Shown here one piece after another: positions 13,691 through 47,878 of a stretch of DNA of 64,000 bases. Position 1 is the first letter of the stretch; each line of letters begins with the position of its first letter. Under the pieces are notes generated by a model. It made no database searches. It was not told the origin of the DNA and saw only the letters and a program-made list of their open reading frames with translations. A program made the position numbers and the translations under genes. The stretch is from positions 87,374-151,373 of IMG/VR virus record IMGVR_UViG_3300017917_004503, one strand, 5' to 3'. Source of the stretch: a virus.

Positions 13691-16600
13691 ATGTCCAATT
13701 TTTTCTATAGAAGACTAGAATTTTTCGATAAAACAGGAAGTCCTTTAAATCTTGATTATGTAGGACCGACCGGACCGACTCCTTTAGATTCGAGATTCAC
13801 TTTCGTGACCGGAGCAACTGCTTCATCTTTGGGGTATTGTTCTGTTAGTCAATTTGATTCTGATCCCGGTTCAATAAGTTTCAACTACACCGATTTTAAC
13901 AATTTCAGTTTAGCTTCTTGGGTTTCAGAAGTTAATGATTTTCTATTGAATGGTGCAGAGGTTTTTTTAAACGGTAGGGTTGCAGGCCAAAATCAGTTTT
14001 CTGGAAAAATCCAGTCTGTGACTGATAATACCACTTTCTTTACAGTTAATTTTTTTCCTGACAGCATACAGGGTCAAAGATTAATAAGTTTAGATAATCA
14101 AATCTTTTTTAATAGCACATATAAATACAGACCTGGCGGTTATTGGAGAGGTAACATTTATTTCGATCCAGTTTCGTCTGGACTTTATGAAAACCAACAA
14201 ATTTTCGTAATCCAGAATTTTGACGTGGTTGGATCAAAATTTTATGGCCACCCGCATACTGGAGTTACAGGTGCAACTGCAGCCAAATGGAGAACCCGCT
14301 GGTATAATGATAGTTACGGCAATACTGATGTTTCTGAAATTATTTTTACCTATAAGATACAAGAAGATCTTTCCGGTGGAGATGGTTATCCCCTTATAGT
14401 TTCGTATCCTAATGTGGTTTACCCTATAGATGTTTATCCAACAGACACTTTAATTTCTGGTGGTTATGTAGAAACTCTTTCTGTAGACTCGTCTGCTTTG
14501 TCAATAAACGTCGCACTTAATGCCAGCGATTTAGCTGCAAACATATATGAGAGAAAATTAATCATAGAAGACATAAGTGCTGGACCGACAGGTCCTATTA
14601 AAGTAGCTGAAATAGATTTTTACGGTGAAGTTGTAGGTGAAGATGAAAGATTCAAAGTCATGTTACAAAACATAGGAAGGGCTTTTTATCCAAGTGACTC
14701 TCTAATTCTAAGAGACCATGATCCATCCGAGCCCTTACCAAATTTTATAGAAATTAATGAAAAGAGAAAAGAACTTCTTTTATCAGGAGAAGAGATTTTT
14801 CCTTATGCTGGAAGTTATAAAGGTCTTATAAGTGCTATCAAATTTTTTGGTTATCAAGATTTGAGAATTAAAGAATATTGGTTAAATCTGGAGTATCAAA
14901 GTTTAAAGCTTGAATCGCCTCTTCAGCAGAATGCACAATTTCTAAATCAAATAAAAAGACAGCAATCAAACGGATATTCTCAATCCTACCAGATTGGTGA
15001 TGTTCTAGATAATCCTAATTCTGGAAAGTATAGAATGGTTCAAACTTATGGACCAGATCAGGATGGGAATTATATTTTAGATGTCTCTAGTGAGGACACA
15101 TTAGTTCCAAGCAGAACTTATAAAAAGACATCTTTGTTTGGTCTTTTTTATGATATTACCAAAACAACTGGTATTGAAGGAGAATTCGGATATCCTGAAG
15201 TTGTTGACGCTTTCCAATTTACACAGGAAGAAGTTTTAATAAAACTTTTTGCACTTAAGGAAAGATTGAAAAGAGACTATCTACCGATTAATGCTAGAAT
15301 AGTTGATATAACAGGAGAAGGAGTTTATTTTAATGTCTATAACACTAAAGCTTGGAGCGACGTTATGGAAAGACCTGATATTGAATCGGGTATTTATGCA
15401 GAGGTCAGGTCAAATCCAGATTTTGGGTTTCTTGAAGATTTAAGAAATTTTGAGATAAGACCCTCAAGCTTAGCAATACAAACTCCAAGCAACTATTATG
15501 ATACTTTTACTATAGACGCTGCTGTTGCAGGTGGAACTGGATCTGCCTTTTTCTTTTCTGGTATTCCTGCTACTGGACCAAACCCAACCTTATCTGTAAC
15601 TGCAGGAAAAACGTATAATTTTAATTTTTTAACCGAAGATTTTGATTTGTTTTTAACAACCAACCAAAATTTAACGCAGTCAGATCCTGTTGGTGTTACT
15701 AATAACGGAGCTACTTCAGGAGGACCAAATCTAACTTGGTATGTTAATCCTCTACAGAGCTCACCTGTCTATTACTATTCTTCGAAGAATAAGTCTTTGT
15801 TGACCGGTTCTATAATCGTTTTACCTTCTGAATTATCTGATCTTGGTAACATCGTTAATCCTCTATCAAATCAACAAATATTTACACCACAGCAGAACGA
15901 ATCGCTTCTTTCTGCCATAGGTAACTTTTATGAACTTAAACAACAAGGACAAATTGTTGAGCTTGGTGATGGTAAATATGATCCACCGTCTTTTATTAAT
16001 CCTACAACGGGAGAACCGTACGAGGTTCCTGTTGGTATGCCTATAATATTAGAACTCATCACTGATGTTTGGACTTGGGACGAGTTGAATATTAATTGGT
16101 CTGCCCTATTAATACCTGTTTTTAGAATAGGAAATAGAGTTCAAAGAAAATCTGACGGAGAATTTGGAAGTGTAACTGCAGTTAATTATTCAACCGGAAT
16201 TTATACAGTACTCCTTGACGATTTAACTGTGATTACTGTGGATGAATCTGAGCTTTTTTCGACCATCCAGAATTATGCTCTTTTAACATGGAAGAATATT
16301 GATTTTTCAAATTTGGTTGAGATTGAATGGATAATAAACAAACCTTCTACCCAATCAGGATCACCTTATAATTTCCAATTTAGAGGATCTATAGTGGACT
16401 TTTATAAGTTAGCCCACTTTGTACCATATACAGGAATTTATCAAGTCACATGTAACATTTATGACGCTTTTAACGCAAAAACCGTTGTTATAAAAAACCA
16501 AGCCATTGTCGTTAATCCTAAAATTGTAGATATCGATGCCTGGACTAGATATAGAGAGGTTGAAGACTACAGATGGACGAACGTTCAAAAATCTTGGTCT

Positions 16601-18892
16601 GATTATGATTCCATTTGGGAGTATCCAGCAGAAGGTGAAACTATCGAACAGCTAGAAAAAAGTATACCTAGTGAGATTCTCGATTTTGCAACATATGGTA
16701 ATAAATCAGAAGAGGGTCAGGATGTTTATGTAAGAGTTCAGGTAGATCCAGTCGGCGCTACTGGTTTTATTAACTTTACTCAATCTGAATTTACTATAAC
16801 CGAGATATCTTCAAATTTAATTATTCCTGGTCAATATGCTTTTGCCAAAGTCTACACGTCGACTCCTCATGGCCTAGTCAATGATCAAGAAGTTAGTATT
16901 TTTAACACAATACCTCAGATAAACGGTAGATGGAATGTAACAGTACCTGACGGAGCAACCTCTGAATTTATCATACCAATTACGATTGATCCTTCATGGA
17001 ATAATGTGTTAATATTATCAACACCAACTAGATTAGCCGTAGATGGAAGCTTTTTCACTAATCAGTATTTAACCCCTTCGGGATCTATCGAGGTTTTTGT
17101 TAATGGTAGATTGATTGGATCCGCAGAGGCAGGAGATAATTTGTACACCACTGTTAATTCTATAGTTTCCTCTATAAATTCACTACGAACATTCCCTGAT
17201 TATTTTGCTTCTTGTACTGTTCCAAGTGAGGATCCAGTAACACTTTTGATTAGTGCTCCAAATGAACTTGGTGCTGATCAAAATGGAGTCGAGTTAACGT
17301 ATAATGTCTCCGGATCTCTATCGGTTTCGTCATATTCTACTGGACTTTCAGGAGGATCTAGCATTACTGAATCCTATGTTTATTGGAGTGAATCTAGTGA
17401 AGAATATCCAAACGCTAACCTAAAATATTGGGGAACTAAAAATCTGGATTGGAATATTTTTACAGAAAATTCATGGGATGACGCTTATGCCCATTCTTGG
17501 TTTGACTTTGAGTTTAATAATGATTGGTTGGGTGGATTTGAACTTCATAATTTGTCTCCTGGAGATTTTGTAAAAGTTAGTACAGCTAATGAATTTTTCC
17601 CCTTTCCTATTGGGATAACAGTTCAGCCGGGTGTTTCTAGCTTAAGTGTTCAAGAATTGGCAGATCAGCTCAATAATTCATCGGACCCAAATATAACTAA
17701 TTTCTACTATAGACCAATACCAAATGAAAATGGAGATTCTGATGTTGATAGTCCACCTATTAATTTAGAAATACAAAACACATTAATACCAGCTTCAGCA
17801 TATTCTCCTGCACTCTCATTGATTGGGGGAAGTGGAGTATTGATAGCTAATTTCACATACACTGGAGGCACAGTTTTATTACCGACAACAACAACCACTA
17901 CTAGTACATCGACTAGTACAACAACGACAACAACTGCACCTCCAACCAGTACGACAACATCGACTTCGACAACATCGACAACATCGACAACAACTGCACC
18001 TCCGACTAGTACGACAACATCGACTTCGACAACATCGACAACGACTATTGCTCCAACGTCTACAACGACATCGACAACATCGACTAGTACGACTACGACA
18101 TTGCCACCAGGAACTTTTACTTTGAGTACTTCTGGAATTTCTAACATCCTTACATCGTATGGATTTGCACAGACTTCTCCTTTCAGTATTTCTTATCTTT
18201 CTGGAACGAACCTTACACCAGGATCACCTGTAACATTTACCCCTACTTTTGGTAACAGTGGTGTTATATTAGCTTCGAGCTCATCGACCACACCATCAAC
18301 ACAACTTGTTTTCCAAACTGCTCCAACGACAGTTAGCGCATCAATGATAACATATCCTGGAGGGGCAATTTACATAGGAACTGTCACAGGTACTGGAACT
18401 ACTAGAAACGTTGTATGGTCTTCTGTTAATTTGGTTGGTATAACTTCTATGGCTGTAAATATTACTGCTTCGACTTTAACAACCACAACTAGTACAAGTA
18501 CCACAACAACAAGTACAAGTACTTCAACCACGACAACTACGACAACGTTAGCCCCAGGAACAGGTAAATTTAAGAACAGTGGATCAATAGTTATGACATC
18601 ATATAGCTTAAATCAGACTGCACCATTTAGCACATCTCTTACATCTGGATCTAATCTAACACCAACTAGTTCTGCAACTTTTAGTGCTTACTTTAACTCT
18701 GGAACCTCTTTACAGTCTTCTGTGACGTTCAATAGTTCTCCTACAACAGTTACCGCTACTTTAACGAGATATCCTTCAGGAACAACAACTAATGGATCTA
18801 TAACAGGAAGCGGAAGTAGTAGAACAATAAGCTGGAGCGCAGTAGATCTTTCAACCTCTACATCTTACCAGATACAGATTGGTGGATCTTAA
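13691..18892 (+). CDS. large baseplate wedge protein (gp7-like) with mucin-like Thr-rich linkers and two C-terminal beta domains
   Basis: FPYAGSYKGLISAIKFFGY..IKEYW resembles the gp7/gpI tail-formation core; follows gp25 and gp6; 1733 aa. Confidence 0.6.
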   Translation: MSNFFYRRLEFFDKTGSPLNLDYVGPTGPTPLDSRFTFVTGATASSLGYCSVSQFDSDPGSISFNYTDFNNFSLASWVSEVNDFLLNGAEVFLNGRVAGQNQFSGKIQSVTDNTTFFTVNFFPDSIQGQRLISLDNQIFFNSTYKYRPGGYWRGNIYFDPVSSGLYENQQIFVIQNFDVVGSKFYGHPHTGVTGATAAKWRTRWYNDSYGNTDVSEIIFTYKIQEDLSGGDGYPLIVSYPNVVYPIDVYPTDTLISGGYVETLSVDSSALSINVALNASDLAANIYERKLIIEDISAGPTGPIKVAEIDFYGEVVGEDERFKVMLQNIGRAFYPSDSLILRDHDPSEPLPNFIEINEKRKELLLSGEEIFPYAGSYKGLISAIKFFGYQDLRIKEYWLNLEYQSLKLESPLQQNAQFLNQIKRQQSNGYSQSYQIGDVLDNPNSGKYRMVQTYGPDQDGNYILDVSSEDTLVPSRTYKKTSLFGLFYDITKTTGIEGEFGYPEVVDAFQFTQEEVLIKLFALKERLKRDYLPINARIVDITGEGVYFNVYNTKAWSDVMERPDIESGIYAEVRSNPDFGFLEDLRNFEIRPSSLAIQTPSNYYDTFTIDAAVAGGTGSAFFFSGIPATGPNPTLSVTAGKTYNFNFLTEDFDLFLTTNQNLTQSDPVGVTNNGATSGGPNLTWYVNPLQSSPVYYYSSKNKSLLTGSIIVLPSELSDLGNIVNPLSNQQIFTPQQNESLLSAIGNFYELKQQGQIVELGDGKYDPPSFINPTTGEPYEVPVGMPIILELITDVWTWDELNINWSALLIPVFRIGNRVQRKSDGEFGSVTAVNYSTGIYTVLLDDLTVITVDESELFSTIQNYALLTWKNIDFSNLVEIEWIINKPSTQSGSPYNFQFRGSIVDFYKLAHFVPYTGIYQVTCNIYDAFNAKTVVIKNQAIVVNPKIVDIDAWTRYREVEDYRWTNVQKSWSDYDSIWEYPAEGETIEQLEKSIPSEILDFATYGNKSEEGQDVYVRVQVDPVGATGFINFTQSEFTITEISSNLIIPGQYAFAKVYTSTPHGLVNDQEVSIFNTIPQINGRWNVTVPDGATSEFIIPITIDPSWNNVLILSTPTRLAVDGSFFTNQYLTPSGSIEVFVNGRLIGSAEAGDNLYTTVNSIVSSINSLRTFPDYFASCTVPSEDPVTLLISAPNELGADQNGVELTYNVSGSLSVSSYSTGLSGGSSITESYVYWSESSEEYPNANLKYWGTKNLDWNIFTENSWDDAYAHSWFDFEFNNDWLGGFELHNLSPGDFVKVSTANEFFPFPIGITVQPGVSSLSVQELADQLNNSSDPNITNFYYRPIPNENGDSDVDSPPINLEIQNTLIPASAYSPALSLIGGSGVLIANFTYTGGTVLLPTTTTTTSTSTSTTTTTTAPPTSTTTSTSTTSTTSTTTAPPTSTTTSTSTTSTTTIAPTSTTTSTTSTSTTTTLPPGTFTLSTSGISNILTSYGFAQTSPFSISYLSGTNLTPGSPVTFTPTFGNSGVILASSSSTTPSTQLVFQTAPTTVSASMITYPGGAIYIGTVTGTGTTRNVVWSSVNLVGITSMAVNITASTLTTTTSTSTTTTSTSTSTTTTTTTLAPGTGKFKNSGSIVMTSYSLNQTAPFSTSLTSGSNLTPTSSATFSAYFNSGTSLQSSVTFNSSPTTVTATLTRYPSGTTTNGSITGSGSSRTISWSAVDLSTSTSYQIQIGGS
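17881..18100 (+). repeat. low-complexity coding repeat (poly-Thr/Ser, TTTSTSTT..APPTS)
   Basis: acaacatcgac-type repeats; a second Thr tract lies at about 18470-18547. Confidence 0.9.
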
Positions 18893-18894
18893 TC

Positions 18895-18922
18895 GGAACT
18901 TTAACTTGCTTTTCTGATAAAA
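18895..18922 (+). promoter_or_regulatory. putative promoter GGAAC-N18-TAAAA
   Basis: Same bipartite motif occurs at 7522, 49577 and 58100. Confidence 0.45.
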
Positions 18923-18928
18923 TTTTTT

Positions 18929-19894
18929 ATGATTAATAAAAAGATTACTTTTATATGCGCACAGCCAGATGTGCCATATTTTCACTGGCAAGTTGAGGTT
19001 TTTTTACATAATGCAATGAAAAACGGTATTAATCCAAATTGGATTGAAATACTTTTTGCTTATGATACAAGCCCTTCGAATGCTGGTGTTTCTTTAGCCT
19101 CTAGATACCCTTATGTTAGGTTCTTTTTTTATAAAAAAACCCCATGCGAGAACTATGGGTATATTCCAATATTAAGACCAGATATTCTTGAGCAACACTT
19201 CGAGAGATTTCCACAGCTTTCTCAAGAACCAATTTTCTATCATGACTCTGATATAATTTTTAGAGAATTACCTGATTTTGAAAGTCTTCTATCTGATGAT
19301 AAATGGTATTTCAGTGACACAGTTTCTTATATTGGATCGAACTATATAAGGAGTAAATCAGAAGAGCTATTTGAGAATATGTGCGAAATAGCAGAGGTTC
19401 CCAAAGAATTAGTGATGGAAAATGAATTAAACTCCGGTGGTGCTCAATATCTAATGAAGGGAATAGATCATTTATTTTGGAGAGATGTGAAGAATGTTTC
19501 TTTAGACCTTTATAAATATATGCTTAAAAGGGAGGAAGACGAAAGAATCACCTTATCTTCGGATCAGCTTCTTCATTATAATCCTATCCAAAAGTGGTGT
19601 GCTGATATGTGGGCCGTTTTTTGGTGTGGTCTTAAAAGAGGGGCACAGATAAGAATATCTAATGAGTTAAGCTTTAGTTGGGGGTCAACTTACGGACAGG
19701 ATGAATGGAATAAGCATAAGATTTATCACAATGCTGGAGTTGTGAATAATCAGGACGGTAAGGTTTTTTACAAAGGAGAATTTATAGATAAATCCCCTTT
19801 CGATCACGATTTTTCACAAATAGATCCACAACATAACACGTACAATTATGTTCAAGCTATTTTATATGCTAAAGAAAAACGTTCTTTAGTATAG
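18929..19894 (+). CDS. GT-A glycosyltransferase resembling peptidyl-Ser/Hyp O-glycosyltransferases (SERGT1/HPAT-like)
   Basis: YFHWQ, YIPILRP, HDSDIIF (DxD), GGAQY, WCADMW and YHNAG in the order seen in GT95/GT96-type enzymes. Confidence 0.65.
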   Translation: MINKKITFICAQPDVPYFHWQVEVFLHNAMKNGINPNWIEILFAYDTSPSNAGVSLASRYPYVRFFFYKKTPCENYGYIPILRPDILEQHFERFPQLSQEPIFYHDSDIIFRELPDFESLLSDDKWYFSDTVSYIGSNYIRSKSEELFENMCEIAEVPKELVMENELNSGGAQYLMKGIDHLFWRDVKNVSLDLYKYMLKREEDERITLSSDQLLHYNPIQKWCADMWAVFWCGLKRGAQIRISNELSFSWGSTYGQDEWNKHKIYHNAGVVNNQDGKVFYKGEFIDKSPFDHDFSQIDPQHNTYNYVQAILYAKEKRSLV

Positions 19895-19907
19895 GTTAAT
19901 TTATCCG

Positions 19908-19915: not shown

Positions 19916-19936
19916 AAATTAAACATAAATTCCTGA

Positions 19937-21652
19937 ATGGCCCAACAAATAGAACAAGGAGATTACATATTTTACCAAGATGCAACTGTGGGCGGACCAC
20001 CAGTTCTTTGGAACTGGCTTTTTCCTGGTGGAACCCCCACCGGAAGTTCAAATCAAAATCCAATTGTTAGATATCTGGCACCAAACTCTTTAGGGTATAA
20101 TGTTACCCTTTACGTGGAAGACACATATTCAATATATTCGAGTAAAACTGAAAATAATGCCATAGTTGTTGTTCCTGAGAATCTTTCTTCTATATCGTTA
20201 TCTGCTTCGACAGCCAACGCTACACTCAGTGAAACTGTTTTATATACTGTTGCGGGTCCAACAGGAAAGTTGTCTTATTATGATTGGGATTTACCAGGAA
20301 CAGGAGGATTTACTGGACCGACCTCTCAAACGCAATCACTAACAGTCAATAGTTGGTTGGATTTGACTGGTTCTGATGCAGGGTCTTTCTTTTCCATAGC
20401 ATCTTTAGATGCTTCTGTTACTTATTTTTCAGTTACTGGAAATAGTCTTACTGTTACAACACCCATAAATTTTATAAAATCTGGATATTTTGAATCTTTT
20501 AACCTATTAAGTGCAACTGGAGCTTTTCCTTCTCCTACAACTCAGTACACCCAAGCTATTAATACCGTTACGCAAACCAGTTCAATTGGTCTTGGAGGAG
20601 GAGGATATGTCTGGCTTTTTGGACAGCCTTACTATCCTAATGCTATAGAAAATTTGTCATCTCGGGTACAGGGAGAAACTGTAGATTTTTGGTCTTGTAG
20701 TAAAGATTTTGCATTTCCTTTTGGTTCTATAGATGCAGGAAAACTTGAAAATTTACAATTTGTAGCTTCTAAACAGGCATTTGATGTTTTAGGAGTTTCA
20801 CCTACTGGATGGGAGTCTTTAAGCAGATATACTGTGGGTAACTATATGTTTCCGTATGATCTTTCTACATATTTTAATTCTAGTTTTTATTTAGCTGATG
20901 TGAATAGTTTGGTTGCAGGGACACCTATTTCAAATAATGGATATTCATCTTTTAATTCTCTCTTTCTGAATGATGCTTATTATGCCTCACAAAGTTCGGC
21001 TAGCATGTCTGCTAGGTACCCTTCTGTTCAACCAGCAGCATTTCTCCTTAATTTAGATGGTGCAGCAGGGGCAAGTGGATCTCCTGGATTGCAATGTATA
21101 CCCTCACCAACTCTTGTTGGCGGAACTGTAACATTAACACTCACTGTTCAATATAGTACTAATGGAAAAATAAGCGGATATAATCCTGCGTCTGATAATG
21201 TTATAAATATTAATTTTTCACCGCCGGGAAACAGCCCTGATGCTTCTTTATTTTTTGCACAGGATACCATAGGAGGCAGCGGATTTGTAAGCTTGATAAA
21301 TGCAGCTTTAACAAGTGCTGGTCTTGCTTCTAATATAGAAGCTATTGCAAGTCCGAGTTTTTGTTGGTCCCCAGCTTTATATGAATTAACAACGGGCCAA
21401 TATTTCCAAGGATGTAAAATAGTCATCAAAGATGTAGTTGATCCGGGCAACCCACATTTGAAGATAATAAGAGTCAGGGTCCAAGGAAACTCAGGCAGCT
21501 GGAACCCACCATACAATTTATATACGGTAACAGGAAATGCTGGATCCGGAAGTTGGCTTTGTTTTGCTGACGAGTACATTTCTAATCCTTATCAAGAATA
21601 TGACACTCAATCTTTGCCTTTTAGAGGTTTTAAGTTTAGAGGTAACACCTAA
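19937..21652 (+). CDS. PKD-domain virion protein
   Basis: FYQDAT..PVLWNWLFPGGTP..S.NQNPIVRY...YNVTLYV PKD signature; second degenerate PKD (YYDWDLPG). Confidence 0.7.
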   Translation: MAQQIEQGDYIFYQDATVGGPPVLWNWLFPGGTPTGSSNQNPIVRYLAPNSLGYNVTLYVEDTYSIYSSKTENNAIVVVPENLSSISLSASTANATLSETVLYTVAGPTGKLSYYDWDLPGTGGFTGPTSQTQSLTVNSWLDLTGSDAGSFFSIASLDASVTYFSVTGNSLTVTTPINFIKSGYFESFNLLSATGAFPSPTTQYTQAINTVTQTSSIGLGGGGYVWLFGQPYYPNAIENLSSRVQGETVDFWSCSKDFAFPFGSIDAGKLENLQFVASKQAFDVLGVSPTGWESLSRYTVGNYMFPYDLSTYFNSSFYLADVNSLVAGTPISNNGYSSFNSLFLNDAYYASQSSASMSARYPSVQPAAFLLNLDGAAGASGSPGLQCIPSPTLVGGTVTLTLTVQYSTNGKISGYNPASDNVININFSPPGNSPDASLFFAQDTIGGSGFVSLINAALTSAGLASNIEAIASPSFCWSPALYELTTGQYFQGCKIVIKDVVDPGNPHLKIIRVRVQGNSGSWNPPYNLYTVTGNAGSGSWLCFADEYISNPYQEYDTQSLPFRGFKFRGNT

Positions 21653-21669: not shown

Positions 21670-24600
21670 ATGCCCAATAGTACATTATACATAAACGACA
21701 TAGCATTAGACAAAGAACTATTTGTTTGGGCCAGTGGACAAGATATTCGAAAATACACTGGAACGTCCTGGGAATATTATAATAGTTCCAATTCGGCAGT
21801 TCCCCAAGCTTCCCCATATTATTTAGATACCCGAAGCATTTCTATAGATCCCGAAAATAAAGCTTGGGTTGGAGTTGCCCAAGGACCAACATCTGGATTT
21901 AATGAAGTTGCCGTATTTTGGATAAACGCTTCAAATGTAACTGAAGGTGATTTTTGGAATTTCAGTGATCTTGGATCTTTTTCAGAGACCCAAGAAATTT
22001 CTTTAGTTTATGCTTGTCCTTTTGGTGATGACATCTTAGCATTCTCTACTCCTTTGAACGGTGTTGGTGGTACAGGAGCTACAGCTTATACTAGAATATT
22101 TGGTGCCACTGGAGGCAGATTGTTTCATTATCTGAAAGAAACTGACCAATGGAAAGAAACAGCACCTGGATATATTTGGCCTCACATATATTCTATATCG
22201 ACTAAGGGCAATAAAGGAACTGGATATTATTATTATCTAGGAACCAGCGAAGGTCTAATGGTTATACCCCAAGGGGTTTTGAGTACTATAGAGCTATCAA
22301 ACGGATTAAAGTATATTCAACAGGCCACAGTTTATAATTCTCATACCTCTGGAATAATATCCGATAACATCTATTGTTTATCCTTTGATGAGAATGAAAA
22401 TTTGTGGATCGGTACTGATTTAGGTCTTTCTTTTTTTAACGGAGAAAAATTTTGGAATTATCCTCTGAGCGGTCCTGTAACTGCCATACAGAGTAGAGAT
22501 AATGGCCACGTGTTTTATGCGATGGGTGACGGTGAGATGTTTCAAGGAACTGGTATTTGGCATTTCAACGGTACAACCCACACACAGATAAATTCTTCTA
22601 ATTCAGAATTACAAAACAATCAGGTACTAGACTTTAATATTCTGGAGCATAACGTGGTTCAGGGATCTAGGATTTTACATGAAAATTCTTTCTGGGTTCT
22701 CGAATACAATTACCTGTCGTCTCTAGATTATGATTTACCCCATGTTTATGCTTCTTCAAAATATGCTGGAGCAACCGGGTGGAATTTTACGTACTATACC
22801 CCTACTGGTGGTGGACCCGATATACCAAAAGTAAATAAGTACACCTGGACGTATCCTGAATGGCTTGTCTATGATAACGAATATCTTAAAGAAAAACATC
22901 CAGGATTGGATCCAAGAAACCTTTTTCTGACCACTAAGTTACAGGATATTGCAGACGGTAAAGCAGGGGAACAACCATACTGGAATAACTGGCCTTTACC
23001 TTCGTATGAAGAATCAGTAAAGATTGACCAGTTTGCTTCTCCAGCATGGGATGGCCAGATTATGATTTACAATGGGACACAATCCAACGTAAATATAACT
23101 TCTTCAACCGTACAGGAATTTCAAGGATATAAGAAATATTATGTTTCTGGTACAATTCTTCCACCAGCTCAGAATGTTGAAACAGTCGTACAGTTCGGAT
23201 ATTACTCAGACTCTACACCTGCAACTTTGACTGCAACTAATCCATCAATAAACGCTGATTTAAATTCAGTTAACGACACTTTCAGTCAGGGCAAGACCTC
23301 TTTTATAGTTTGTTACTCTGAGTCCGGTACGGTTGATGCTATACTGCCATTTAAAGGGAATAGCACAGAGATCCAATCCCTATGCTCTAGTCCTGATGGT
23401 AATTACATTTACGCAGGAGGAACTTTTAACAAATTTATCGAGGTTGGTGATTTCGTCTGGGGTTCTTCAGCTAATATTTTAGGTGCTTCTGGTCCAACTG
23501 GTGCACCTGTAGGTATCACTAATAATCAATTTTCATCATATGGAGCTACTTCCGACCTTGGTTGGATATACCCTATAACCGATCCTGGAATAACTACGAA
23601 TATTTATTGGACGATGACTGCTTTCCCTGGAGAATTTGAAAATGTTTCTTCCGGATTTGCTGATTTTAAGTTTGGTGGATATCCGTCCGGTACAATAGGA
23701 ACTTGGGAAACGATAGAAAACATCTATCTTAATTACTTGGACAATTTTACAGCAGATCAATCTGCTTTTTTGAATAGTGTTTTAATTGGATCTACTATTA
23801 AAATAACTCTAACAGGTGGTGTAACACAAACTGCCTATTATAGAATTGATGCTTCATCCAATAATTCAGGTAACAGTATAACATATTGGATCACATATCA
23901 AACCGGAGCAAGTGGTCCAGTTGAAGATTATAGCATTGCTCTCGTATCGTTAGATGCTGAGTTTTTCTCTTATAATTCGAATACCTTTCCTTATACTAAA
24001 TTTCAGGACACATTATTAAGTGATTCGTCAGCATTTTTCGTTGCTAAAATAGGTAGAGATTTAGGAAATATTTCAAGTTTTTCTGGTGTTACTGGCGATT
24101 TCAACACCTCTGTTAGAAAGTCATATAGAATAAATGAGTTTAGGCATTTCCCTGTTATTGGGACTTACAATTCAGCAATACAAAACATTACAATCGACGC
24201 ATCTAAATACTATTTGAATATAGGATTTTCCAATAATTCTGCAGTCAACAGATATTCAACACTAAAAAATCTCTGGACTAGAAGCGGTGATTTCATCGAT
24301 GCACCTAGTGAGTTTGGTAGTTCTACATCATCATATTTTATTTCGTATATGAGATTAACCACAGAAAACTTTGATTTGATTGATGTTGAGACCACAACTT
24401 CATCAAGTTTCATTTATCTGAAAGAAATCCAATCATCAAATAGCGAAAATAGTGTTTTGTTAACAGGAGTCTCTAATAACAGCTTCTCTATGTTGGATAT
24501 TGACCTGAATAACCCAATACCTTCTTCATCTTATCCTTTTTATATTATCACCGGACAAGGATCAACCGGATCAACCGGAGCTTTTGTTGATATCGGCGGA

Positions 24601-26737: not shown

Positions 26738-27646
26738 ATGGCAACAGTAAACATTTCAGAAATTTTAGGCTCCGATTCTATTTCTGGATCTAGAACAACT
26801 ATCAATTCCAATTTTTTAATATTACAAAACTGGATCAACGGTTATGTAACTGTATTTGGTGTAGATAGTGTAAATGGCATCCTGGATTTAACAGGGGCTT
26901 CAACCGGAAAAGTAGCAGCAAAAATTGGATCTTTCGATGCTATATCTGTACCAACAACAGGAACAGCAAAAGCAAGCGTTAGTAGTGCTGGTGTGGCTTC
27001 TTTTGTAACGGTGCAAACAACAACACTAACTGCATCTGGAACAGTCACATTCAATGGAAACGTAACATTCGGGAGTTCTTCCATATTTACGGTAGGTGGA
27101 ACTGCTAGTTTCAACGGCTCAACTAGTTTAAACGGAGGCTTAACTTTCGGACCTCTTGGACACGTAGTTAGTACTAACACTACTGCTGCAGGTGGAACTG
27201 GAACTGCATTCCCTGTAAATACGTCTGGAATAGGGGGAGGCGGATATTTAACATCTGTAAATTCTCCTTATGCAATTACAGGATTGGAAGATGTAATTTA
27301 TGCCAATTGCGGACCTACTGGTTTCTATATGAAGGTTGTTGATGGAACTTCTCCGGTTGGTGGTACTTTACCTAACATTCCTCAAGGTACAAGAATTACT
27401 ATAGTAAATACTTCTGCTGCTACAGGTTATATTTATACCGGTGTTACTGGAACATCTAGTTCATATTACACTGGATTTAACACCAGTTCAAGCTATGGAG
27501 GATATTCACCTTCAGGTATAGTGGTAAGTGCAAGCAAATCTTACAGATCATCGATTACCTTGCAATGGGAACCTAGAGTTGGACAGGGTCAAGCAACCCA
27601 GAATGGATCTTGGATAGTCCTCGGAGCAGCTAATGTTACTGTTTAA
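26738..27646 (+). CDS. fibre-like virion protein
   Basis: N-terminal ILGSDS..SRTTINSNF motif (gp9/gp10-like attachment motif); Gly/Ser/Thr-rich beta segments. Confidence 0.55.
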   Translation: MATVNISEILGSDSISGSRTTINSNFLILQNWINGYVTVFGVDSVNGILDLTGASTGKVAAKIGSFDAISVPTTGTAKASVSSAGVASFVTVQTTTLTASGTVTFNGNVTFGSSSIFTVGGTASFNGSTSLNGGLTFGPLGHVVSTNTTAAGGTGTAFPVNTSGIGGGGYLTSVNSPYAITGLEDVIYANCGPTGFYMKVVDGTSPVGGTLPNIPQGTRITIVNTSAATGYIYTGVTGTSSSYYTGFNTSSSYGGYSPSGIVVSASKSYRSSITLQWEPRVGQGQATQNGSWIVLGAANVTV

Positions 27647-39108: not shown

Positions 39109-40659
39109 ATGCCAAGTACTAATATACAAACAATTTTATATTCTGATAATACAGATCAGACCATAGACAAGCTCAATAATAATTTCGATGAAATTGTTGA
39201 GCTTCATGGAGGTACTATAGGTACTATAGGTCCAACTGGAAGTCCAGGTGCTCTAGGAGAAAGAGGAATCCCAGGATCAACCGGAATATCTGGACCAAGA
39301 GGAACAAGATGGTTTATTTCAACATCTGCTCCTGCAGGACCTGCTCAGGAGGGAGATTATTGGATAGATTCGGATTCCAGTCAAATATACCAATTATATT
39401 CTTCCGGCTGGATATTTACAGGTTTTAATGTTAATATTTCGGGTGATCTATTTCAATCTATACTTACACAGCTTCCACCCTCTTCCGGATATGCTGGAGG
39501 GACTGGAATATCTGTAGGAATGGATCAGGTGTTACCTAATAATTATCTATACACTTTAAGTGACGTAACACCCGAATTTGGTATAACCAACCAAACTTTG
39601 TCGAAATTTCTAATCGCAACAAATTCTACAGAGAATGATGCTCCGCTTTTAGAATTTTCTAAAAGTAATGTTGAAAGTGGACAGATCTCTGATTATTCTA
39701 AACATCCTGTTTTTACGTGGCCGAATGTTAATCCCTCTGATAATTCTTTAGAGTTAACAGTTCCAGGAGGGAGTTTTTCAATGGGTCTTTCTGGAGGAAC
39801 GAAAGCCGGATTTAATAATTTTAGTCTGGATTCTCAGGGACCAATTGTAATTGATTATGGAGCTACTTCATCAAGTGGAATATACTCTACTGGAGGTTTT
39901 TCTTTCGATGCTTCTTCTGGAAGATTTAATATCACTAGCCAATTTTTAAGAATACTTGGTGGATCCGGAGAATTTAGAAATCCAATTTCTTCTACAGCAA
40001 CACTAAATGAAAGCAATCCATCGGTTACTGTTTCGATAGGAGGAACCTCCGGATTATTAAGCACGAGATCTGGTGATTCTCATTCAACTATTTCGCATAA
40101 CGTTAATCACATTTCATTAGAAACAACGTCATCGACACAATTTTCGCTTAACACAAAAGGTAAGCTAACTACAAAAAAGACAGTAGAGGGTATAACGTAC
40201 GCAAGTCAAACTCCCGGTGTTACTGGTACAGTGAGTGCAGATTTCGTTAACTGGTATCTAATATCCAAACCTGGATCTTCAGTTTCTTCTTCAGTTCTTA
40301 GCAATGGTAATACCATGATTATAAGTCCTTCTGTTTCAAGTGGAAAAATTGGGGTTGGATTTTACACAAATCCATCTGATTATTTTGGATGGGGTAGCAC
40401 AGCAGGCGTCTTAGCTGGTGAGTCGATGGATGTGAAAGTTTTTCTTTCTTCTGAGAACTTTTCTCAAACATACGGCGGAATAAGCTATCTTGGCGTTGGA
40501 GCTACTTCTGGATCAATAGTCAATAAGGTTTCTTTGCCTTTTAGGGCTTCTGCAATAGATTTTACTATAGCCAAAGGAGTTACCGGTGGACAGGTTACCA
40601 CTGTGTATTATACAGCTTACGGAATAACTGGAGGATCAGGGGGATCTTTTACTTTCTGA
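39109..40659 (+). CDS. collagen-segment tail fibre protein, paralog 1
   Basis: KLNNNFDEI, 10 G-X-Y triplets, GDYWID. Confidence 0.65.
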   Translation: MPSTNIQTILYSDNTDQTIDKLNNNFDEIVELHGGTIGTIGPTGSPGALGERGIPGSTGISGPRGTRWFISTSAPAGPAQEGDYWIDSDSSQIYQLYSSGWIFTGFNVNISGDLFQSILTQLPPSSGYAGGTGISVGMDQVLPNNYLYTLSDVTPEFGITNQTLSKFLIATNSTENDAPLLEFSKSNVESGQISDYSKHPVFTWPNVNPSDNSLELTVPGGSFSMGLSGGTKAGFNNFSLDSQGPIVIDYGATSSSGIYSTGGFSFDASSGRFNITSQFLRILGGSGEFRNPISSTATLNESNPSVTVSIGGTSGLLSTRSGDSHSTISHNVNHISLETTSSTQFSLNTKGKLTTKKTVEGITYASQTPGVTGTVSADFVNWYLISKPGSSVSSSVLSNGNTMIISPSVSSGKIGVGFYTNPSDYFGWGSTAGVLAGESMDVKVFLSSENFSQTYGGISYLGVGATSGSIVNKVSLPFRASAIDFTIAKGVTGGQVTTVYYTAYGITGGSGGSFTF

Positions 40660-40688: not shown

Positions 40689-42698
40689 ATGCCAGATTTA
40701 AAATTGTTAAGAATAGAACAAGGTGATAGCCAGAAGAATTTAGCTGACAAAGTTAATCAAAATTTTTCTGACATTATTGCTTTTGGTGGTGGACCCTATG
40801 GAAAAGTAGGTAAACAGGGACCACAGGGTGATCAAGGAATAACCGGCCCAGTTGGACCGTATGGATCGCTTGGATATAGAGGCAGCATATGGACTGTTGG
40901 CCCAACACAGCCTTCTGCTACCGGAGGGTTTAATGGCGACTATTGGATTAACCCTGAAAATTTTAATTCTGTTTATATTCTTAATTCTGGTTCATGGTCA
41001 CCTTATGGATTTAATCTACTCGGTCAAGATTTATTTAGAATTTATGAACCAGTAACAACGTCTTCTGGAAACTCTACATATTCTGGCTATTATATTTCAT
41101 CTATTAATCCACAGCAGAATACTCTAGTTTTAAGTGATAATATTGTAGCTAACGACTCAGTTACAGCAAATCCGCAGTATTCTAAAGTTGTTATTTCTAT
41201 AGATGGTGGTGCAACAGGTAAGAACTTAATGGAGTTTACAAAAAGCGAGTATGTTGATAATACTTCTTTTAGAAGTTCTACACCCAGATTTTTCTGGAGC
41301 GATAGATCTTTAACTAATTACAATCTTTCTTTCCTAAGTGGAGGATCTTTATTTTTCGATCTTTCGTCAAATCTCTCTTTGCAATCTAAGGCTTTTGGGT
41401 ATAATCTAAATTTTAGAAGTTCAGGGATGATCCTGAATCTAAACTCTTCACTCGGATTTTCTGCTAGATCTTCTGGAGGAAATATCATATTAGATTTCAA
41501 AACAACAGGGACTGCTAATTTTTCAGCTGGCAATATCAGATATTCATCTAGTTTATTTACCATGCCTGTTAATTTTGTGATCACCTCACAGAGCACAGAC
41601 TCGCTTCCTGCATTATGGTTATCGAATTCTAATTCTTCCGTTAGTGGATTTAGACACAAATCTAACATCCAACCGAATAGAAGTTCTAGACTTTTTCGAG
41701 CTTACGATGTTGCTTCTGCATCATCAATGTTTGAAGTTTTGGGCGACGGAGAGGTCTATTTAAACAGAAAGGTAAGTTCAATACAACCAAGCCAATCTGT
41801 TTCAAAAGGAGGAACAGGAACTGTTTATATTGGAGCAACTTCATCTGTTTCTGTTGGCTGGTATGCAGTAATCCCGACGATTGCCATTACCTCCTCTGTT
41901 ACTAATACTGTAAATTGTAATAACGGTTCTAATTTTGTAATAACACCAACATCGACTGGACCATCCAGTGCAACTGGTATTTATTTATGGACACCTTCAA
42001 CAGGTGGAGGTATTAACACCAATCCTGGATGGCTAAATCTAATCAATAATCAAAATTCTGAGTCTATAAGTTTTACTGTTAGAACAGATTCAGAAAGTAA
42101 ATTGGTTAGATTTATAGGCTTAGGACTTGGACAGACTTATGATGTTTTACCTCCTGGAGAATATATCTCTTCCACCGGAAACGGAGGATTTGTGGATCTG
42201 ACAGGAAACAATTCAATCGGCGCTTCTCATATAGACTTTACGATTATAAACTTATACGGTCAGAGTGCAGTAGCTAACAACAGATGGTTTAAGGTTTACT
42301 ATAGTGCTTATGGAGGAAATTTAGGTTCAGTTAAATGTGGTGTTCTTTACACCCCACCTTTTAGTGCTTATATTAACACTGGATCTATCTATATGACAGA
42401 TTCATCTCTGAGCCAAACTCTTCCTTTTTCTAGTACTATTTTAGCAACAGGTACACCTATAACACCTGGGCAATCTAGAAACTTTACACCTCCTTCTTTC
42501 CCAAGTGGAAGTGCCTTTAGTGCAACAGCTACTTTTTCATCTGCACCGACAACAGTAACTGCTACTCTGATAAGGTATCCATCTGGAACATCTACAAACG
42601 GTACTATTAGTGGATCTGGAACTAGCAGAACTATTACTTGGAGTGGAATAGATTTATCTACTTCTACTGCCTATGTGGTTAGAATTGGTGGATCTTAA
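40689..42698 (+). CDS. collagen-segment tail fibre protein, paralog 2, with extra C-terminal domain
   Basis: KVNQNFSDI, 10 G-X-Y triplets, GDYWIN; C-terminus homologous to that of the 13691 protein. Confidence 0.65.
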   Translation: MPDLKLLRIEQGDSQKNLADKVNQNFSDIIAFGGGPYGKVGKQGPQGDQGITGPVGPYGSLGYRGSIWTVGPTQPSATGGFNGDYWINPENFNSVYILNSGSWSPYGFNLLGQDLFRIYEPVTTSSGNSTYSGYYISSINPQQNTLVLSDNIVANDSVTANPQYSKVVISIDGGATGKNLMEFTKSEYVDNTSFRSSTPRFFWSDRSLTNYNLSFLSGGSLFFDLSSNLSLQSKAFGYNLNFRSSGMILNLNSSLGFSARSSGGNIILDFKTTGTANFSAGNIRYSSSLFTMPVNFVITSQSTDSLPALWLSNSNSSVSGFRHKSNIQPNRSSRLFRAYDVASASSMFEVLGDGEVYLNRKVSSIQPSQSVSKGGTGTVYIGATSSVSVGWYAVIPTIAITSSVTNTVNCNNGSNFVITPTSTGPSSATGIYLWTPSTGGGINTNPGWLNLINNQNSESISFTVRTDSESKLVRFIGLGLGQTYDVLPPGEYISSTGNGGFVDLTGNNSIGASHIDFTIINLYGQSAVANNRWFKVYYSAYGGNLGSVKCGVLYTPPFSAYINTGSIYMTDSSLSQTLPFSSTILATGTPITPGQSRNFTPPSFPSGSAFSATATFSSAPTTVTATLIRYPSGTSTNGTISGSGTSRTITWSGIDLSTSTAYVVRIGGS

Positions 42699-42726
42699 TA
42701 AATAAATTAGAACAAAGTATTTAGAC

Positions 42727-44457
42727 ATGCACTTTAACATAAAACATATTTTCAAAGGAGAATCTGAATCTGAAATAGTTAAAAAGATTAATTATAACTT
42801 CGATCAGATTATATCTTTTGCTGTCGGTCCAGACGGACAAGGTGGTCCAAAGGGTTCTTTAGGAATACCTGGACCAGCGGGTAAAAAAGGAGCAACTGGA
42901 CCAACTGGAACTAGATCAAGTCTTTTTACTAAACAGGATACATCACCTGCCACTGGGGATTCCAATCCATATGATTATTGGATAGATTCATCTTCGAGTG
43001 ATTATAGCATATATTCTTATGGTGTAACTGGATCTGGCTCGTGGTCTTTCACTGGTTATTCTTTATTCTCTTCTCCATATTTTAATGTATACGACGGAAT
43101 AGTAGGACCAGGAGGAGCTACTGATAAGTTTGCGATAGCTTTTAAAAATGGAGCATCGTTTCTTGTTGATAACGGTCTTTCGGTTTCTGATGCTAGCTTA
43201 ATAATATCCGATGGAACTATTACATCTTCTAATGGAAATCCGAATCGTTCTAAACTTGTGATTGCGACCGAAGATCAAACTTCTAGACCTATATTAGCCT
43301 TTGCTAAAACTGGTTCATCTAACTCAGGAATACCTTCTTTCTATTGGACAAATAGTGGTAATTCTACGAATTTATCTTTTAGAAGCACCGGTGATTTTTA
43401 CATATCGTCACTTTTAGGCTTAACCGTAGATTCATATACCGCAAGTTCTATTTTGAATGGTAACTCTGCTTCAATCACTTCGACGAGTGATATTACGATA
43501 GGTGGAACCGGCGATTTTTTCCTAAATACTAATACGACTGTTGGTGTTGGTTCTAATTTCATCGTTAGCTCTGGTAACTTAACTTTCAGTAGCACATCTT
43601 TTAGAAGTTCGAATCCTGTAAAGATTACAAATACTTCACAAACGTCGGGGTATGTGTTTGATACTACAAAAAACTCGACTGCATTTCTTTCTTATTCAGG
43701 TGTAGAAATATACGGTGGTAGTTTTGCAACAAAAATGTTTGAATTTAGAGATAGTAATAATGCAACTATTTTCTCTAGTAGCGTAAAGGGACCAGTTCAA
43801 ACCAACAATTATGGACAAACGACATTTGGATCTACCGGCGGTTTACCTGCAGGAGGAACTGCTGGTCCATATTTTTATCATGTTAAAAGATCTACTGAAT
43901 ATAGGCAAAGTACATATTCACTATTTTGTTTAGGTGCTAATAATATTGCAACGACATCAAGTACTTTAGTTTCGGGTACAATAAGGAACGTCTTTGACAT
44001 TTCAAACCCTGAATCATTTTTAACTGATACTATTATAATTACACCAACCACGTACGAGTCTCCGTCCACATCAACTGTTTATGTAAGAATACCTAGTTAT
44101 TTTGCATCAACCTTACCTGGTGTTTATTATTCAAACACTTCTTGTAATTATAGGATTATACTTAATGATGAATCAGGATCTCCAACATATTCTTTAGGTG
44201 GATTAGTTTTTACTTATTATAATTATCCTTCTCTTTTTAATTACTACTTTACCAGTGATTATTACGTTCCTTTTAATTCCTCTTCTACATGCTATTATGT
44301 TGATTTATTTTTTGCACCAGCTGCTAGTTCAACTAATGCAAATCCTAGAATTTTTTGGAAAACGTGCGATGGTAGATCTGGATACCTAACTACAACAAAT
44401 AAAAATACTGTTGGTACTTTCTCTGCTTCTGGAACAACGTTTAGCGGAAGTGCATAA
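42727..44457 (+). CDS. collagen-segment tail fibre protein, paralog 3
   Basis: KINYNFDQI, 10 G-X-Y triplets, YDYWID. Confidence 0.65.
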   Translation: MHFNIKHIFKGESESEIVKKINYNFDQIISFAVGPDGQGGPKGSLGIPGPAGKKGATGPTGTRSSLFTKQDTSPATGDSNPYDYWIDSSSSDYSIYSYGVTGSGSWSFTGYSLFSSPYFNVYDGIVGPGGATDKFAIAFKNGASFLVDNGLSVSDASLIISDGTITSSNGNPNRSKLVIATEDQTSRPILAFAKTGSSNSGIPSFYWTNSGNSTNLSFRSTGDFYISSLLGLTVDSYTASSILNGNSASITSTSDITIGGTGDFFLNTNTTVGVGSNFIVSSGNLTFSSTSFRSSNPVKITNTSQTSGYVFDTTKNSTAFLSYSGVEIYGGSFATKMFEFRDSNNATIFSSSVKGPVQTNNYGQTTFGSTGGLPAGGTAGPYFYHVKRSTEYRQSTYSLFCLGANNIATTSSTLVSGTIRNVFDISNPESFLTDTIIITPTTYESPSTSTVYVRIPSYFASTLPGVYYSNTSCNYRIILNDESGSPTYSLGGLVFTYYNYPSLFNYYFTSDYYVPFNSSSTCYYVDLFFAPAASSTNANPRIFWKTCDGRSGYLTTTNKNTVGTFSASGTTFSGSA

Positions 44458-44494
44458 AATTATCAGATATAATTTAAAATAAATATATAAAAAG

Positions 44495-45581: not shown

Positions 45582-45592
45582 AATTTTAAAAA

Positions 45593-47878
45593 ATGTCATT
45601 TAGCAGCACTTCAAAATATGTCCAACTTACTCCGTATCTTCTTATGGAGTACATGTATGCTGACGAACCACAACCCGAATCCTATTTTGTTAATAGTGGA
45701 CCTGTAACAGTTGGATATCAGAAGCTGATAAATGGGTATGCGTCCAATAGTGTTCAAGTATTCAATCCTAATTCTGATTTTGATATAACACATAACACTG
45801 CTAATAATAGTGTGGTACAGATTGCTACAAATTCTTTTGTGACACTTGATTCTAATCTAATCATACCTTTTAATGATTACTCTGAGAAGTTAACAGATAC
45901 CAACAATCTACCCATCACATTTCCTTCTAATTTATCTGTAGTATATGATACTGTTAGATACCATATTAGAGCAGGATATACCTTGAATAACACAGATGGA
46001 ATAATTTTACAAATCGAATTGCAAGATCAAAACCTGAGTTATGTTACAATTTCACAAATCTTGCTACAGAAAGGAACCCAACAGGAATATACCCTAAATC
46101 CGAATCCTGTAACAATTGGATCAAATATTTATGATAAATATTTTGAAATAAAAATTCCAAATTCGCTAGATATGAACAACAAATATCTAGCGGCTTCAAG
46201 TAGTTTTAAACCACAAACACTAGCCTCTTTAATCAGTCAAAGTGGAAATGGATTTGTTTACGGAGCTCCTATGAGAATTGGGGTTTGGCAGGTTCAAAGT
46301 ACTATCGATTTTGAAGGATATTCTAGATATGATTCTGCTAGAATTGCTTTATTGTCTCTTGAAGCTGAAGATCCTTTTTCGAATATAGGTGCTACAATCA
46401 AAATTTCAGATCAAGGTCAGTTTTTTGAATACTATGCAACCGATAATGAAGGATTTATTGAGGATTTCATACTGTTTCAGAATTCAATTGGGAATAGCTA
46501 TTATATTAGTCACAAGATAGAAGTCCTAGAACAAATAGGAACTGCAGTTATACAAACATCTAGCTTTGAATCTATTCAAACGACAGCATATGATTCACCC
46601 AATTATTATCGTCCAATAGTTAGGAATGCAGCTTATTCAGTTTCTTTTACATTGAGATACACTATGTCTTTAATTAATAATGTTGATCAAAGTAGAGTAA
46701 TAAGAATATCTTCATACACATCAGATAATCCTGCTAACTGGGGATTGACAATAACTCAAATACAGCTACAAAATCTTCCTCAGGTACAGAAAATCTATAA
46801 TAGAGTTTATGACCAACCTTCGATAACTATGGGTAACAATGGGTCACTTCAACCTAGAGAGATTCTAAAATATACTAATGTTTTCATTCAGCAGAATTAC
46901 GTAACAGCAACAAGTAATAATCTAACTTTTTCTTCAGGTACTTTGGCAGAGTCAGTGGGAACAACTTCAGTTACTGCTGTCGGATCTGGTAAATTAACTA
47001 TTTCAATTTCACCTTTTGATAACTATTATAAATTCAAATTTATAAAGAATGTAGCGAACGGAACACCTTCTGCTATTGATTTGAGTGATAGTGGATTATT
47101 TAAACTTGCATTTCTCGACAAGGCAGGAAATAAAACTTATATCCCTGCTTTAGCAGACTTAACGATAGCCAGACCATCTTCGGGAGAACTTGCTTTTAAG
47201 ATTGACGAGTCAACCTCAGGTAAAATTCTACAGTTTACTGATAGAAGATTTTTCATAACCAACGGTGGAGGTGCTACTGGTTCAGTCTCAAGTCCTCCAG
47301 CTACACAATTAGCAGCAGCAACTACTGGAACTACTCCTGAAGCTGCGAGAAGAACCGCAGCAATTGTAAATTCTGTTGCTTCGGTTACCAATCAGTCAAC
47401 TTCAGTTTTATATTGGGGATACTGGAAAAAAGACGGAGAATCTGACGTTGTGGTTCCAACTACACCGGCTCCTCCTGTTTCATCTGGATCTGGAGCAAGA
47501 GTTCTAGGAACAATCGGTGGAGTTACAAATGCTCCTAAACCAGCAATAAGCCAAATAGCACCTCCAGCTTCTCAAACTATTTCAGATGTCAGAATATCTG
47601 ATGGCGGGCCTCAGGCTAAACCTAGTTTAACAGGCAGCGCTTTAATTTCTGCACTATCAGCTCAAATTGATGGATATAAAGCAACCGGATGGGCTGATCA
47701 AACAATAATAACATATTTTTTAACCCCAGGTAGAGCTGGATATTTACAGTATCCTGGATTAACAAAAGAACAATTTGTTACTGCTGCTGAAGGGATATTA
47801 GCTCCTTCTAGCTTACAGTCTCTTGTTAGTCCTAACAGAGGGAAAAGAAATGGTGGATCTACTGTTGGTCCAGTTTAA
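45593..47878 (+). CDS. hypothetical virion protein with Pro/Ala/Thr-rich C-terminal linker
   Basis: 761-aa ORF in the structural cluster. Confidence 0.5.
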   Translation: MSFSSTSKYVQLTPYLLMEYMYADEPQPESYFVNSGPVTVGYQKLINGYASNSVQVFNPNSDFDITHNTANNSVVQIATNSFVTLDSNLIIPFNDYSEKLTDTNNLPITFPSNLSVVYDTVRYHIRAGYTLNNTDGIILQIELQDQNLSYVTISQILLQKGTQQEYTLNPNPVTIGSNIYDKYFEIKIPNSLDMNNKYLAASSSFKPQTLASLISQSGNGFVYGAPMRIGVWQVQSTIDFEGYSRYDSARIALLSLEAEDPFSNIGATIKISDQGQFFEYYATDNEGFIEDFILFQNSIGNSYYISHKIEVLEQIGTAVIQTSSFESIQTTAYDSPNYYRPIVRNAAYSVSFTLRYTMSLINNVDQSRVIRISSYTSDNPANWGLTITQIQLQNLPQVQKIYNRVYDQPSITMGNNGSLQPREILKYTNVFIQQNYVTATSNNLTFSSGTLAESVGTTSVTAVGSGKLTISISPFDNYYKFKFIKNVANGTPSAIDLSDSGLFKLAFLDKAGNKTYIPALADLTIARPSSGELAFKIDESTSGKILQFTDRRFFITNGGGATGSVSSPPATQLAAATTGTTPEAARRTAAIVNSVASVTNQSTSVLYWGYWKKDGESDVVVPTTPAPPVSSGSGARVLGTIGGVTNAPKPAISQIAPPASQTISDVRISDGGPQAKPSLTGSALISALSAQIDGYKATGWADQTIITYFLTPGRAGYLQYPGLTKEQFVTAAEGILAPSSLQSLVSPNRGKRNGGSTVGPV

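Follow-up and report, generated by a model that had tools for sequence, protein, structure and literature searches.

A threonine-specific Gly-x-Thr-Gly motif maintained in unrelated outer virion proteins of a jumbo-phage clade, and its possible role as a modification site

The stretch analysed (the window; 64,000 nucleotides, nt) is the final 64 kb of a 151,373-bp viral contig from IMG/VR (IMGVR_UViG_3300017917_004503, positions 87,374 to 151,373; GC content 34.5%, about 52% complete by CheckV). The element under study is the tetrapeptide Gly-x-Thr-Gly (G-x-T-G; G.TG as a pattern), which recurs in the open reading frames (ORFs) between positions 13,691 and 47,878. At least ten outer virion proteins, unrelated to one another, have accumulated the motif and keep it as a protein-level feature in parts that are exposed or variable; they comprise fibres, proteins of the baseplate periphery and the tail sheath in its outer region. 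The window carries a structural module of the T4 type, which has a sheath fragment, proteins of the hub and neck and a gp6-like wedge; it is followed by a block of very large unannotated virion proteins and then by tube, gp32, helicase and Hsp70 genes. A near-identical phage was not found in a GenBank search. The gp6-like protein and a conserved 1214-residue virion protein matched jumbo phages at 25-37% identity (an uncultured 462-kb phage, Lak Prevotella megaphages and jumbo phages of Tenacibaculum, Chryseobacterium, Flavobacterium and Sphingomonas). The host is therefore probably a member of the Bacteroidota, as judged from relatives only.

The genes of the motif-rich block that are listed in what follows lie on the + strand. 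The first encodes a 1733-residue baseplate-peripheral protein (13691..18892) with 5 G-x-T-G and 4 GAT[SA] sites and with poly-Thr, mucin-like tracts of Thr, Ser and Pro (nt 17819-18166 and 18416-18610). Its last ~105 residues (18575-18892) are 58% identical to those of a 669-residue fibre (42375-42698), and a weaker second copy of this C-terminal module occupies its residues 1482-1592. Next come ORF321, a glycosyltransferase gene (18929..19894) whose product has no G-x-T-G of its own, and a 571-residue protein with a weak PKD-like match and 2 sites (19937..21652). The 1336-residue virion protein at 21670..25680 carries 12 sites (1.1 expected) and 3 GAT[SA]; residues 964-1127 hold seven of the sites at a spacing of roughly 50-60 residues, and GSTGSTG is at nt 24559-24579. 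A Gly/Thr/Ser-rich protein of 302 residues (26738..27646) has 3 sites (1.0 expected; not significant alone), and one of 733 residues (27670..29871) has 2 sites and one GATA; the sites of the latter lie opposite gaps or non-motif residues in a sister genome (G016, below). The 1214-residue protein (phrog_29329; 29889..33533), with no G-x-T-G and one GATA, served as an internal negative example and as the clade marker. Seven sites (0.6 expected) are found in a 1849-residue protein (33557..39106), including GVTGPTGLTGP at nt 37241-37273, and several of them are kept in four orthologues with x variable. Three fibres follow: a 516-residue fibre (39109..40659; 6 sites) with a collagen-like segment at residues 35-67 and a beta-rich body, its 669-residue paralogue (40689..42698; 3 sites, one GATS), and a 576-residue protein paralogous to it in the N-terminal part (42727..44457; 5 sites). 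The block ends with a 761-residue protein (45593..47878) that has a single site and is not enriched. Carriers beyond the window include collagen-like fibres, an Mtd_N protein, a PKD protein, a LamG protein and the tail sheath. None of the six sites of the sheath falls within its conserved core (residues 734-1103).

Sites were counted over the 14 ORFs of 13691-47878, with expectations taken from each protein's own composition. G-x-T-G was observed 46 times against 8.0 expected, and G.TG was the top outlier among all 8000 a.bc patterns (z 13.4). Against shuffled controls, the per-ORF excess persisted both when whole proteins were shuffled and when residues were shuffled within 30-residue blocks (ORF 21670, 12 against 1.1-1.5; ORF 33557, 7 against 0.6; ORF 39109, 6 against 1.0-1.2), which rules out composition alone. 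The example strings quoted in the preliminary description were all present in the ORFs named, and GAT[SA] occurred 14 times (0.75 expected). The effect involves three positions: TG, G.T and G..G were each raised only about 1.6-fold, nearly all of it owed to G.TG. Isolated sites, with no Gly at -3 or +6, numbered 28 (6.5 expected), and the other 18 of the 46 lie in short runs of 2-4 Gly-X-Y triplets; G.TG.T was seen 13 times (0.8 expected). Long Gly-X-Y runs of the PF01391 type (roughly 10 triplets or more) were confined to residues ~35-67 of ORFs 39109, 40689 and 42727, and the motif in general does not form part of a collagen triple helix. The claim that sites fall outside collagen runs thus stands for long runs, and about 40% of sites are nevertheless in short Gly-X-Y register. 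Codon usage at the motif was like that of the genes as a whole (p 0.19 for Gly and 0.03 for Thr), so the signal lies at the protein level and a DNA-level word is ruled out. Over the contig, the motif-bearing virion set had 80 sites (19.8 expected) and all remaining ORFs 10 (5.7 expected), in agreement with the earlier impression that the motif is rare in neck, gp6-like, hub and enzyme proteins.

The distribution across phages was examined in 80 IMG/VR loci recovered via the ORF321 gene. All loci with 4-6-fold enrichment fell in one monophyletic clade (17 rows, support 100/97); the sister clade (20 rows) and the outer and distant clades were at about 0-1.3-fold. The dipeptide TG was at 0.99 times expectation in 43,859 residues of large sister-clade ORFs. 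Among complete genomes, a relative (G006) had 67 sites against 24.2 expected and a sister genome (G016) 28 against 24.1. G-x-S-G was considered as a sister-clade counterpart and rejected, as no enrichment was left after runs of three or more triplets had been masked. G.TG was also at expectation in T4 gp7, 10, 12, 18, 34, 37 and wac, and in the large virion ORFs of PAU, PTm1, MaF61 and LR756500, so that the excess is not one that phage fibres share in general. In the G016 orthologues, gaps or unalignable variable regions mostly stood where the enriched clade has its non-collagen sites. With enrichment in one clade and sites at gaps, a single origin in lineage-specific, variable protein parts is indicated for the sampled data. 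Members of the enriched clade are jumbo myophages that have not been cultured; the relatives known for them infect Bacteroidota.

The motif is specific for Thr. In the 14 ORFs, G.SG was counted 15 times (10.3 expected), and the remaining residues in the Thr slot were near or below 2-fold. Over 12 non-redundant relatives, observed and expected counts were 216 and 52.8 for G.TG, 61 and 57 for G.SG, 9 and 35.8 for G.VG, and 11 and 43.4 for G.NG; Ser is therefore neutral, and the isosteric Val and Asn are depleted. Position x is Val, Ala, Pro, Gly, Ser or Leu and never a charged or aromatic residue, Asn or Asp, and the residue after Thr is enriched 4-fold for Gly and 2-3-fold for Ala; Ala or Ser at times takes the place of the last Gly. 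G.NG and G.VG were both at about 0.25 times expectation in enriched-clade virion proteins (loci L074-L133), and G.NG was low also in two sister clades, which show no Thr excess. A role as deamidation-proof substitute for Asn-Gly turns was ruled out, since the dipeptide NG was at expectation (0.96-1.11).

Relatedness among the carriers does not account for the pattern. The only paralogues are ORFs 39109, 40689 and 42727, together with the resemblance between the C-terminal domains of 13691 and 40689. All-against-all hhalign comparison of 11 families built from orthologues (run with -norealign) gave nothing beyond these known paralogies at a probability of at least 40%. Flanks of ±10 residues around sites of different families were no more similar than those of anchors drawn at random from these proteins (z 0.56). 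A cryptic shared domain or micro-module is ruled out by these two tests; since the carriers are unrelated and the flanks dissimilar, the conserved unit is the bare tetrapeptide, and the description of the motif as scattered through unrelated outer virion proteins was borne out.

Orthologues in related contigs (45-85% identity) kept many sites; within these, x varied but G, T and G did not. Conservation of motif Thr was 0.81, compared with 0.47 for background Thr, at ~66% identity (Fisher p 0.002). The family of the 516-residue fibre (92 members, down to ~40% identity) averaged 6.1 sites per protein against 0.9 expected, and the selection at the protein level that had been proposed from varied codons is thereby upheld. 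Non-collagen sites of this family were kept at residues 130, 370, 490 (nt 40576-40587) and 505, and Ser was the most frequent substitute for the motif Thr. With neighbouring columns merged, site number was under-dispersed (variance 1.0 compared with 1.93). The reason is that two subfamilies bear sites in alternative sets of loops (alignment columns 77/364/534 and 134/443/664), the presence of sites being negatively correlated between the two sets and the totals similar. This pattern is suggestive of selection on site number and amounts essentially to one phylogenetic contrast. New sites arise via small loop insertions, for example G--G to GGTG.

As a tentative best guess, drawn from sequence comparison, the motif may be a modification site that is recognised in trans and whose Thr would most likely accept an O-linked group (glycosylation). 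Such a reading would explain why the enrichment is confined to one clade and to outer proteins, why the tetrapeptide is independent of its context, why Thr is required and Ser tolerated, and why sites turn over at a kept number and are created by loop insertion. It would be favoured, too, by the location of sites at strand ends and hairpin loops of a predicted structure and, in the sheath, outside the conserved core, and by the glycosylation context, with a GT-A enzyme in the baseplate operon and a GT1/GT9 gene pair beside collagen-like fibres. In Clostridioides difficile, SgtA, encoded by an adjacent gene, adds O-linked N-acetylglucosamine (O-GlcNAc) to the Thr of the BclA3 GPT repeats (PMC7157674). 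The phage sites would resemble the Gly-Pro-Thr triplets of BclA3 and of BclA (Bacillus anthracis), which are Thr-glycosylated by a neighbouring glycosyltransferase: the actual or putative acceptor Thr is at Y of Gly-X-Thr and is followed by Gly, in both cases a collagen-like stalk and a globular head make up a surface fibre, and glycosyltransferase genes adjoin the fibre genes. Short tandem copies such as GVTGPTGLTG and the collagen-like N-terminal segments of the three fibres may represent denser versions of the same site. The systems differ in that most phage sites are single or in 2-4 triplets within globular beta-rich proteins rather than in long GPT arrays, that the long arrays of the phage are GSS/GTS, and that SgtA also accepts Ser, whereas phage G.SG is not enriched. 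Mycobacteriophage virions are glycosylated by phage-encoded glycosyltransferases (see also PMC11256854). There too the phage enzymes act on the phage's own structural proteins; the sites, however, are reported on C-terminal extensions of capsid and tail-tube proteins with no scattered tetrapeptide, and hosts and lineages are unrelated.

Several results weigh against a glycosylation acceptor. G.SG is at expectation although most O-glycosyltransferases, SgtA included, take Ser, and non-virion proteins do not avoid the motif (10 sites against 5.7 expected). At one capsid site, G-P-T-G of the enriched clade is matched by S-P-T-G at the homologous position of T4 gp23, and at least that site is therefore an ancient structural turn; the major capsid protein was rejected as a polarising case, for the copy of the sister genome likewise bears 3 sites, at one of which T4 reads SPTG. 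Beyond the single clade the motif has no co-varying enzyme, though glycosyltransferases adjoin virion genes, and because all enriched genomes form one clade, every co-occurrence test has N=1. Homologues of ORF321 occur also in sister and outer clades that show no G.TG enrichment. Two complete, terminally redundant, enriched genomes (G010 and G011) have neither GT1 nor GT9 gene, and GT9-like genes are present in the non-enriched G002, G015, G016 and G018. The pattern of a 426-residue GT2-domain protein carries no weight, since 64% of G006 genes have no G016 homologue.

The candidate enzymes were considered in turn. The contig encodes three glycosyltransferases, ORF321 in the window and a GT1/GT4-type and a GT9-like protein outside it. 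The AlphaFold2 (AF2) model of ORF321 had a predicted local distance difference test score (pLDDT) of 94.9, and Foldseek returned 334 matches at E ≤ 1e-3, with probability 1.00 to the catalytic domain of UGGT (GT24), WbbM, and GT6 and GT8 enzymes. H105-D106-x-D108 was invariant in 30 homologues. Judged by its predicted fold and this DxD motif, ORF321 is a genuine GT-A glycosyltransferase, and it is probably the "encoded glycosyltransferase" of the preliminary description. No Pfam match was obtained at E ≤ 0.01. Assignment to HPAT/GT95 (PF23452) was rejected, with no match at E ≤ 10 in a search made without a positive control; in the Atlas, PF23452 was seen in only 10% of one neighbouring cluster. 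ORF321 lies within the baseplate/fibre operon, directly after the 1733-residue protein with the poly-Thr tracts, and its pairing with poly-Thr is conserved far beyond the G-x-T-G clade. T.TT was among the two strongest local patterns in all five sampled ORF321-bearing clades (z 15-41), enriched or not. As poly-Thr is the dominant pattern next to ORF321, its partner is the mucin-like tract and not G-x-T-G. ORF321 is not supported as the motif enzyme: its presence does not suffice for the enrichment, and its conserved partner is poly-Thr. The earlier proposal of an acceptor sequon for the encoded glycosyltransferase is thus retained in part: the GT-A enzyme is in the window, but its link to the motif is unsupported.

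The GT1/GT4-type gene and a GT9 heptosyltransferase-like gene (PF01075, E 3e-7) lie at 31.3-33.5 kb of the contig, just after three (GSS/GTS)n collagen-like fibre genes; fibre and glycosyltransferase genes together occupy G000:C1:21288-33488. The long arrays on the contig are GSS/GTS, with Ser at Y and Ser or Thr at X, and not GPT. GT1 homologues adjoin Ser-rich collagen-like proteins in about 20 of 40 IMG/VR loci (L019-L058), and a single 966-residue ORF combines the GT1 and GT9 parts in G007 and G008. In G010 and G011, PF01075 and GT9 protein searches gave no match, and the (GSS/GTS)n DNA pattern is also missing while G.TG enrichment is retained. With the genes missing from two complete enriched genomes and GT9-like genes present in non-enriched ones, the pair tracks the Ser-rich (GSS/GTS)n fibres, and it is not supported as the motif enzyme. 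Autotransporter heptosylation by Aah/TibC (GT9-related BAHT) is a further likeness, as a phage gene of the GT9 family (PF01075) stands beside virion fibre genes. Enzymes of the Aah/TibC type recognise a short strand-loop-strand motif and not a long sequon, which resembles the contexts of the phage sites. The likeness is limited by the absence of the phage GT9 from two complete enriched genomes, its presence in non-enriched ones and its association with the (GSS/GTS)n fibres.

Several GT2 genes are present in every jumbo relative, enriched or not. One 426-residue GT2-domain protein (L161:1014-2291, equal to G006:C1:140013-141290; by synteny past the end of the present contig) was found in 7/7 enriched and 0/6 non-enriched genomes, at 75-83% identity across the seven. 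Given the 64% of genes that show the same pattern, it was rejected as a discriminating marker and is a lead only. The enzyme of the modification reading would thus probably not be ORF321 alone and would not be the GT1/GT9 pair, the 426-residue GT2 protein of the relatives being such a lead.

An alternative almost as likely as the modification site is that the motif is an intrinsic structural element, a lineage-preferred turn, beta-arc or polyproline-II (mini-collagen) punctuation between beta-strands. The Thr hydroxyl and methyl groups and both Gly residues would then shape the backbone, and there would be no trans-acting reader. Site flanks are of beta-type residues, and residues 1009-1145 of ORF 21670 form a recurring hairpin-like unit. 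The AF2 model of the 516-residue fibre was confident only for residues ~330-516, and Foldseek found no significant fold match for it. In this model GVTG-370 is at the start of a strand, GVTG-490 comes after one, and a two-residue hairpin is spanned by GITG-505. By DSSP, four sites divide equally between strand starts and loops, so that the mapping onto predicted structure placed sites near strand ends and in hairpin loops, as the structural alternative would have it, but in contexts that are not uniform, which counts against it. A [P/A/S]-T-G sequence fits the classic type I turn plus G1 bulge; x, however, is frequently one of Val, Ile and Leu, residues that type I turns disfavour at i+1. The 18 of 46 sites in Gly-X-Y register, the excess of G.TG.T, the true collagen-like N-termini of the three fibres, the S-P-T-G of T4 gp23, the lack of a co-varying enzyme and the lack of avoidance in non-virion proteins all speak for a structural role. 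Against it, a generic turn should not be specific to a clade, and comparable proteins of T4, PAU, PTm1, MaF61, LR756500 and the sister clade are at expectation; moreover, positions turn over between subfamilies while their number is kept, and sites are created by loop insertions. Micro-motifs of T-even fibres, namely His boxes (GxHxH) and the glycine-rich motifs of the gp38 adhesin, are purely structural (metal binding, polyglycine-II packing). They are alike in being short, lineage-specific and recurrent through several tail-fibre proteins, and unlike in standing in paralogous repeats; here the carriers are unrelated, flanks are dissimilar and T4 fibres have no G.TG excess.

Recognition in trans might instead be non-covalent, the motif being a docking site for a clade-specific decoration or cement protein, an assembly chaperone or a host-surface ligand. 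A clade-specific, context-free short linear motif on outer proteins, maintained in number, would suit docking as it suits a sequon. This is considered improbable: a candidate partner was not identified, four residues including two Gly yield little binding energy, and the sites are spread over parts of the virion as different as the sheath, the baseplate and the fibres. Still harder to credit is a non-adaptive by-product, in which mutation or recombination seeded Gly-X-Thr patches from collagen-like genes into loops of structural genes, where they were harmless and so persisted, for although the genome is rich in triplet-repeat coding DNA and orthologues differ by in-register indels (GVTGPTGLTG and GYTGG---TG), the long repeats encode GSS/GTS and not G-x-T, codon variation at the motif is that of the genes at large, constraint is stronger on motif Thr than on background Thr, sites persist in the 92-member family down to 40% identity, and G010 and G011 keep the enrichment without the (GSS/GTS)n DNA pattern.

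Returning to Thr modification, its most far-reaching form may be put as a speculative proposal that we regard as doubtful. This jumbo-phage clade would sugar-coat its virion, a phage-encoded enzyme reading a minimal Gly-x-Thr-Gly O-glycosylation sequon planted convergently by selection in the exposed loops of ten or more outer proteins that share no ancestry, on the sheath surface, at the baseplate periphery and in the fibres. Two other kinds of acceptor would exist beside it in the lineage, poly-Thr with the GT-A enzyme and (Gly-Ser-Ser)n with GT1 and GT9. If the sequon reading were true, this would be the first defined protein O-glycosylation sequon in bacteriophage and an analogue of the glycan shield of eukaryotic viruses. 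Modified Thr would provide a simple, searchable sequon for phage virion glycosylation, with a bearing on stability, host recognition, immune visibility and the annotation of jumbo-phage glycosyltransferases. If the motif is structural, it would be a lineage-specific turn or polyproline-II "dialect" that may help to model giant virion proteins which otherwise defy annotation. Phage structural proteins rarely show short linear motifs under convergent selection; the present one is statistically unambiguous and phylogenetically sharp. Either way, three hydroxy-amino-acid features of the lineage are told apart, two of them with likely enzyme partners.

Four further genes of the window were recorded. 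A PhoH-like ATPase gene (PF02562, E 2e-64; 25719-26486, - strand) sits midway in the fibre block, in opposite orientation. A 395-residue protein with S1 RNA-binding domains (PF00575, E 5e-15) is encoded amid the structural genes at 7576-8763 (+). A 673-residue protein at 55525-57546 (+) has a C-terminal cytidylyltransferase-like domain after an N-terminal part of ~470 residues, and a full-length Hsp70/DnaK (PF00012, E 8e-260) is encoded by the phage at 61560-63449 (+).

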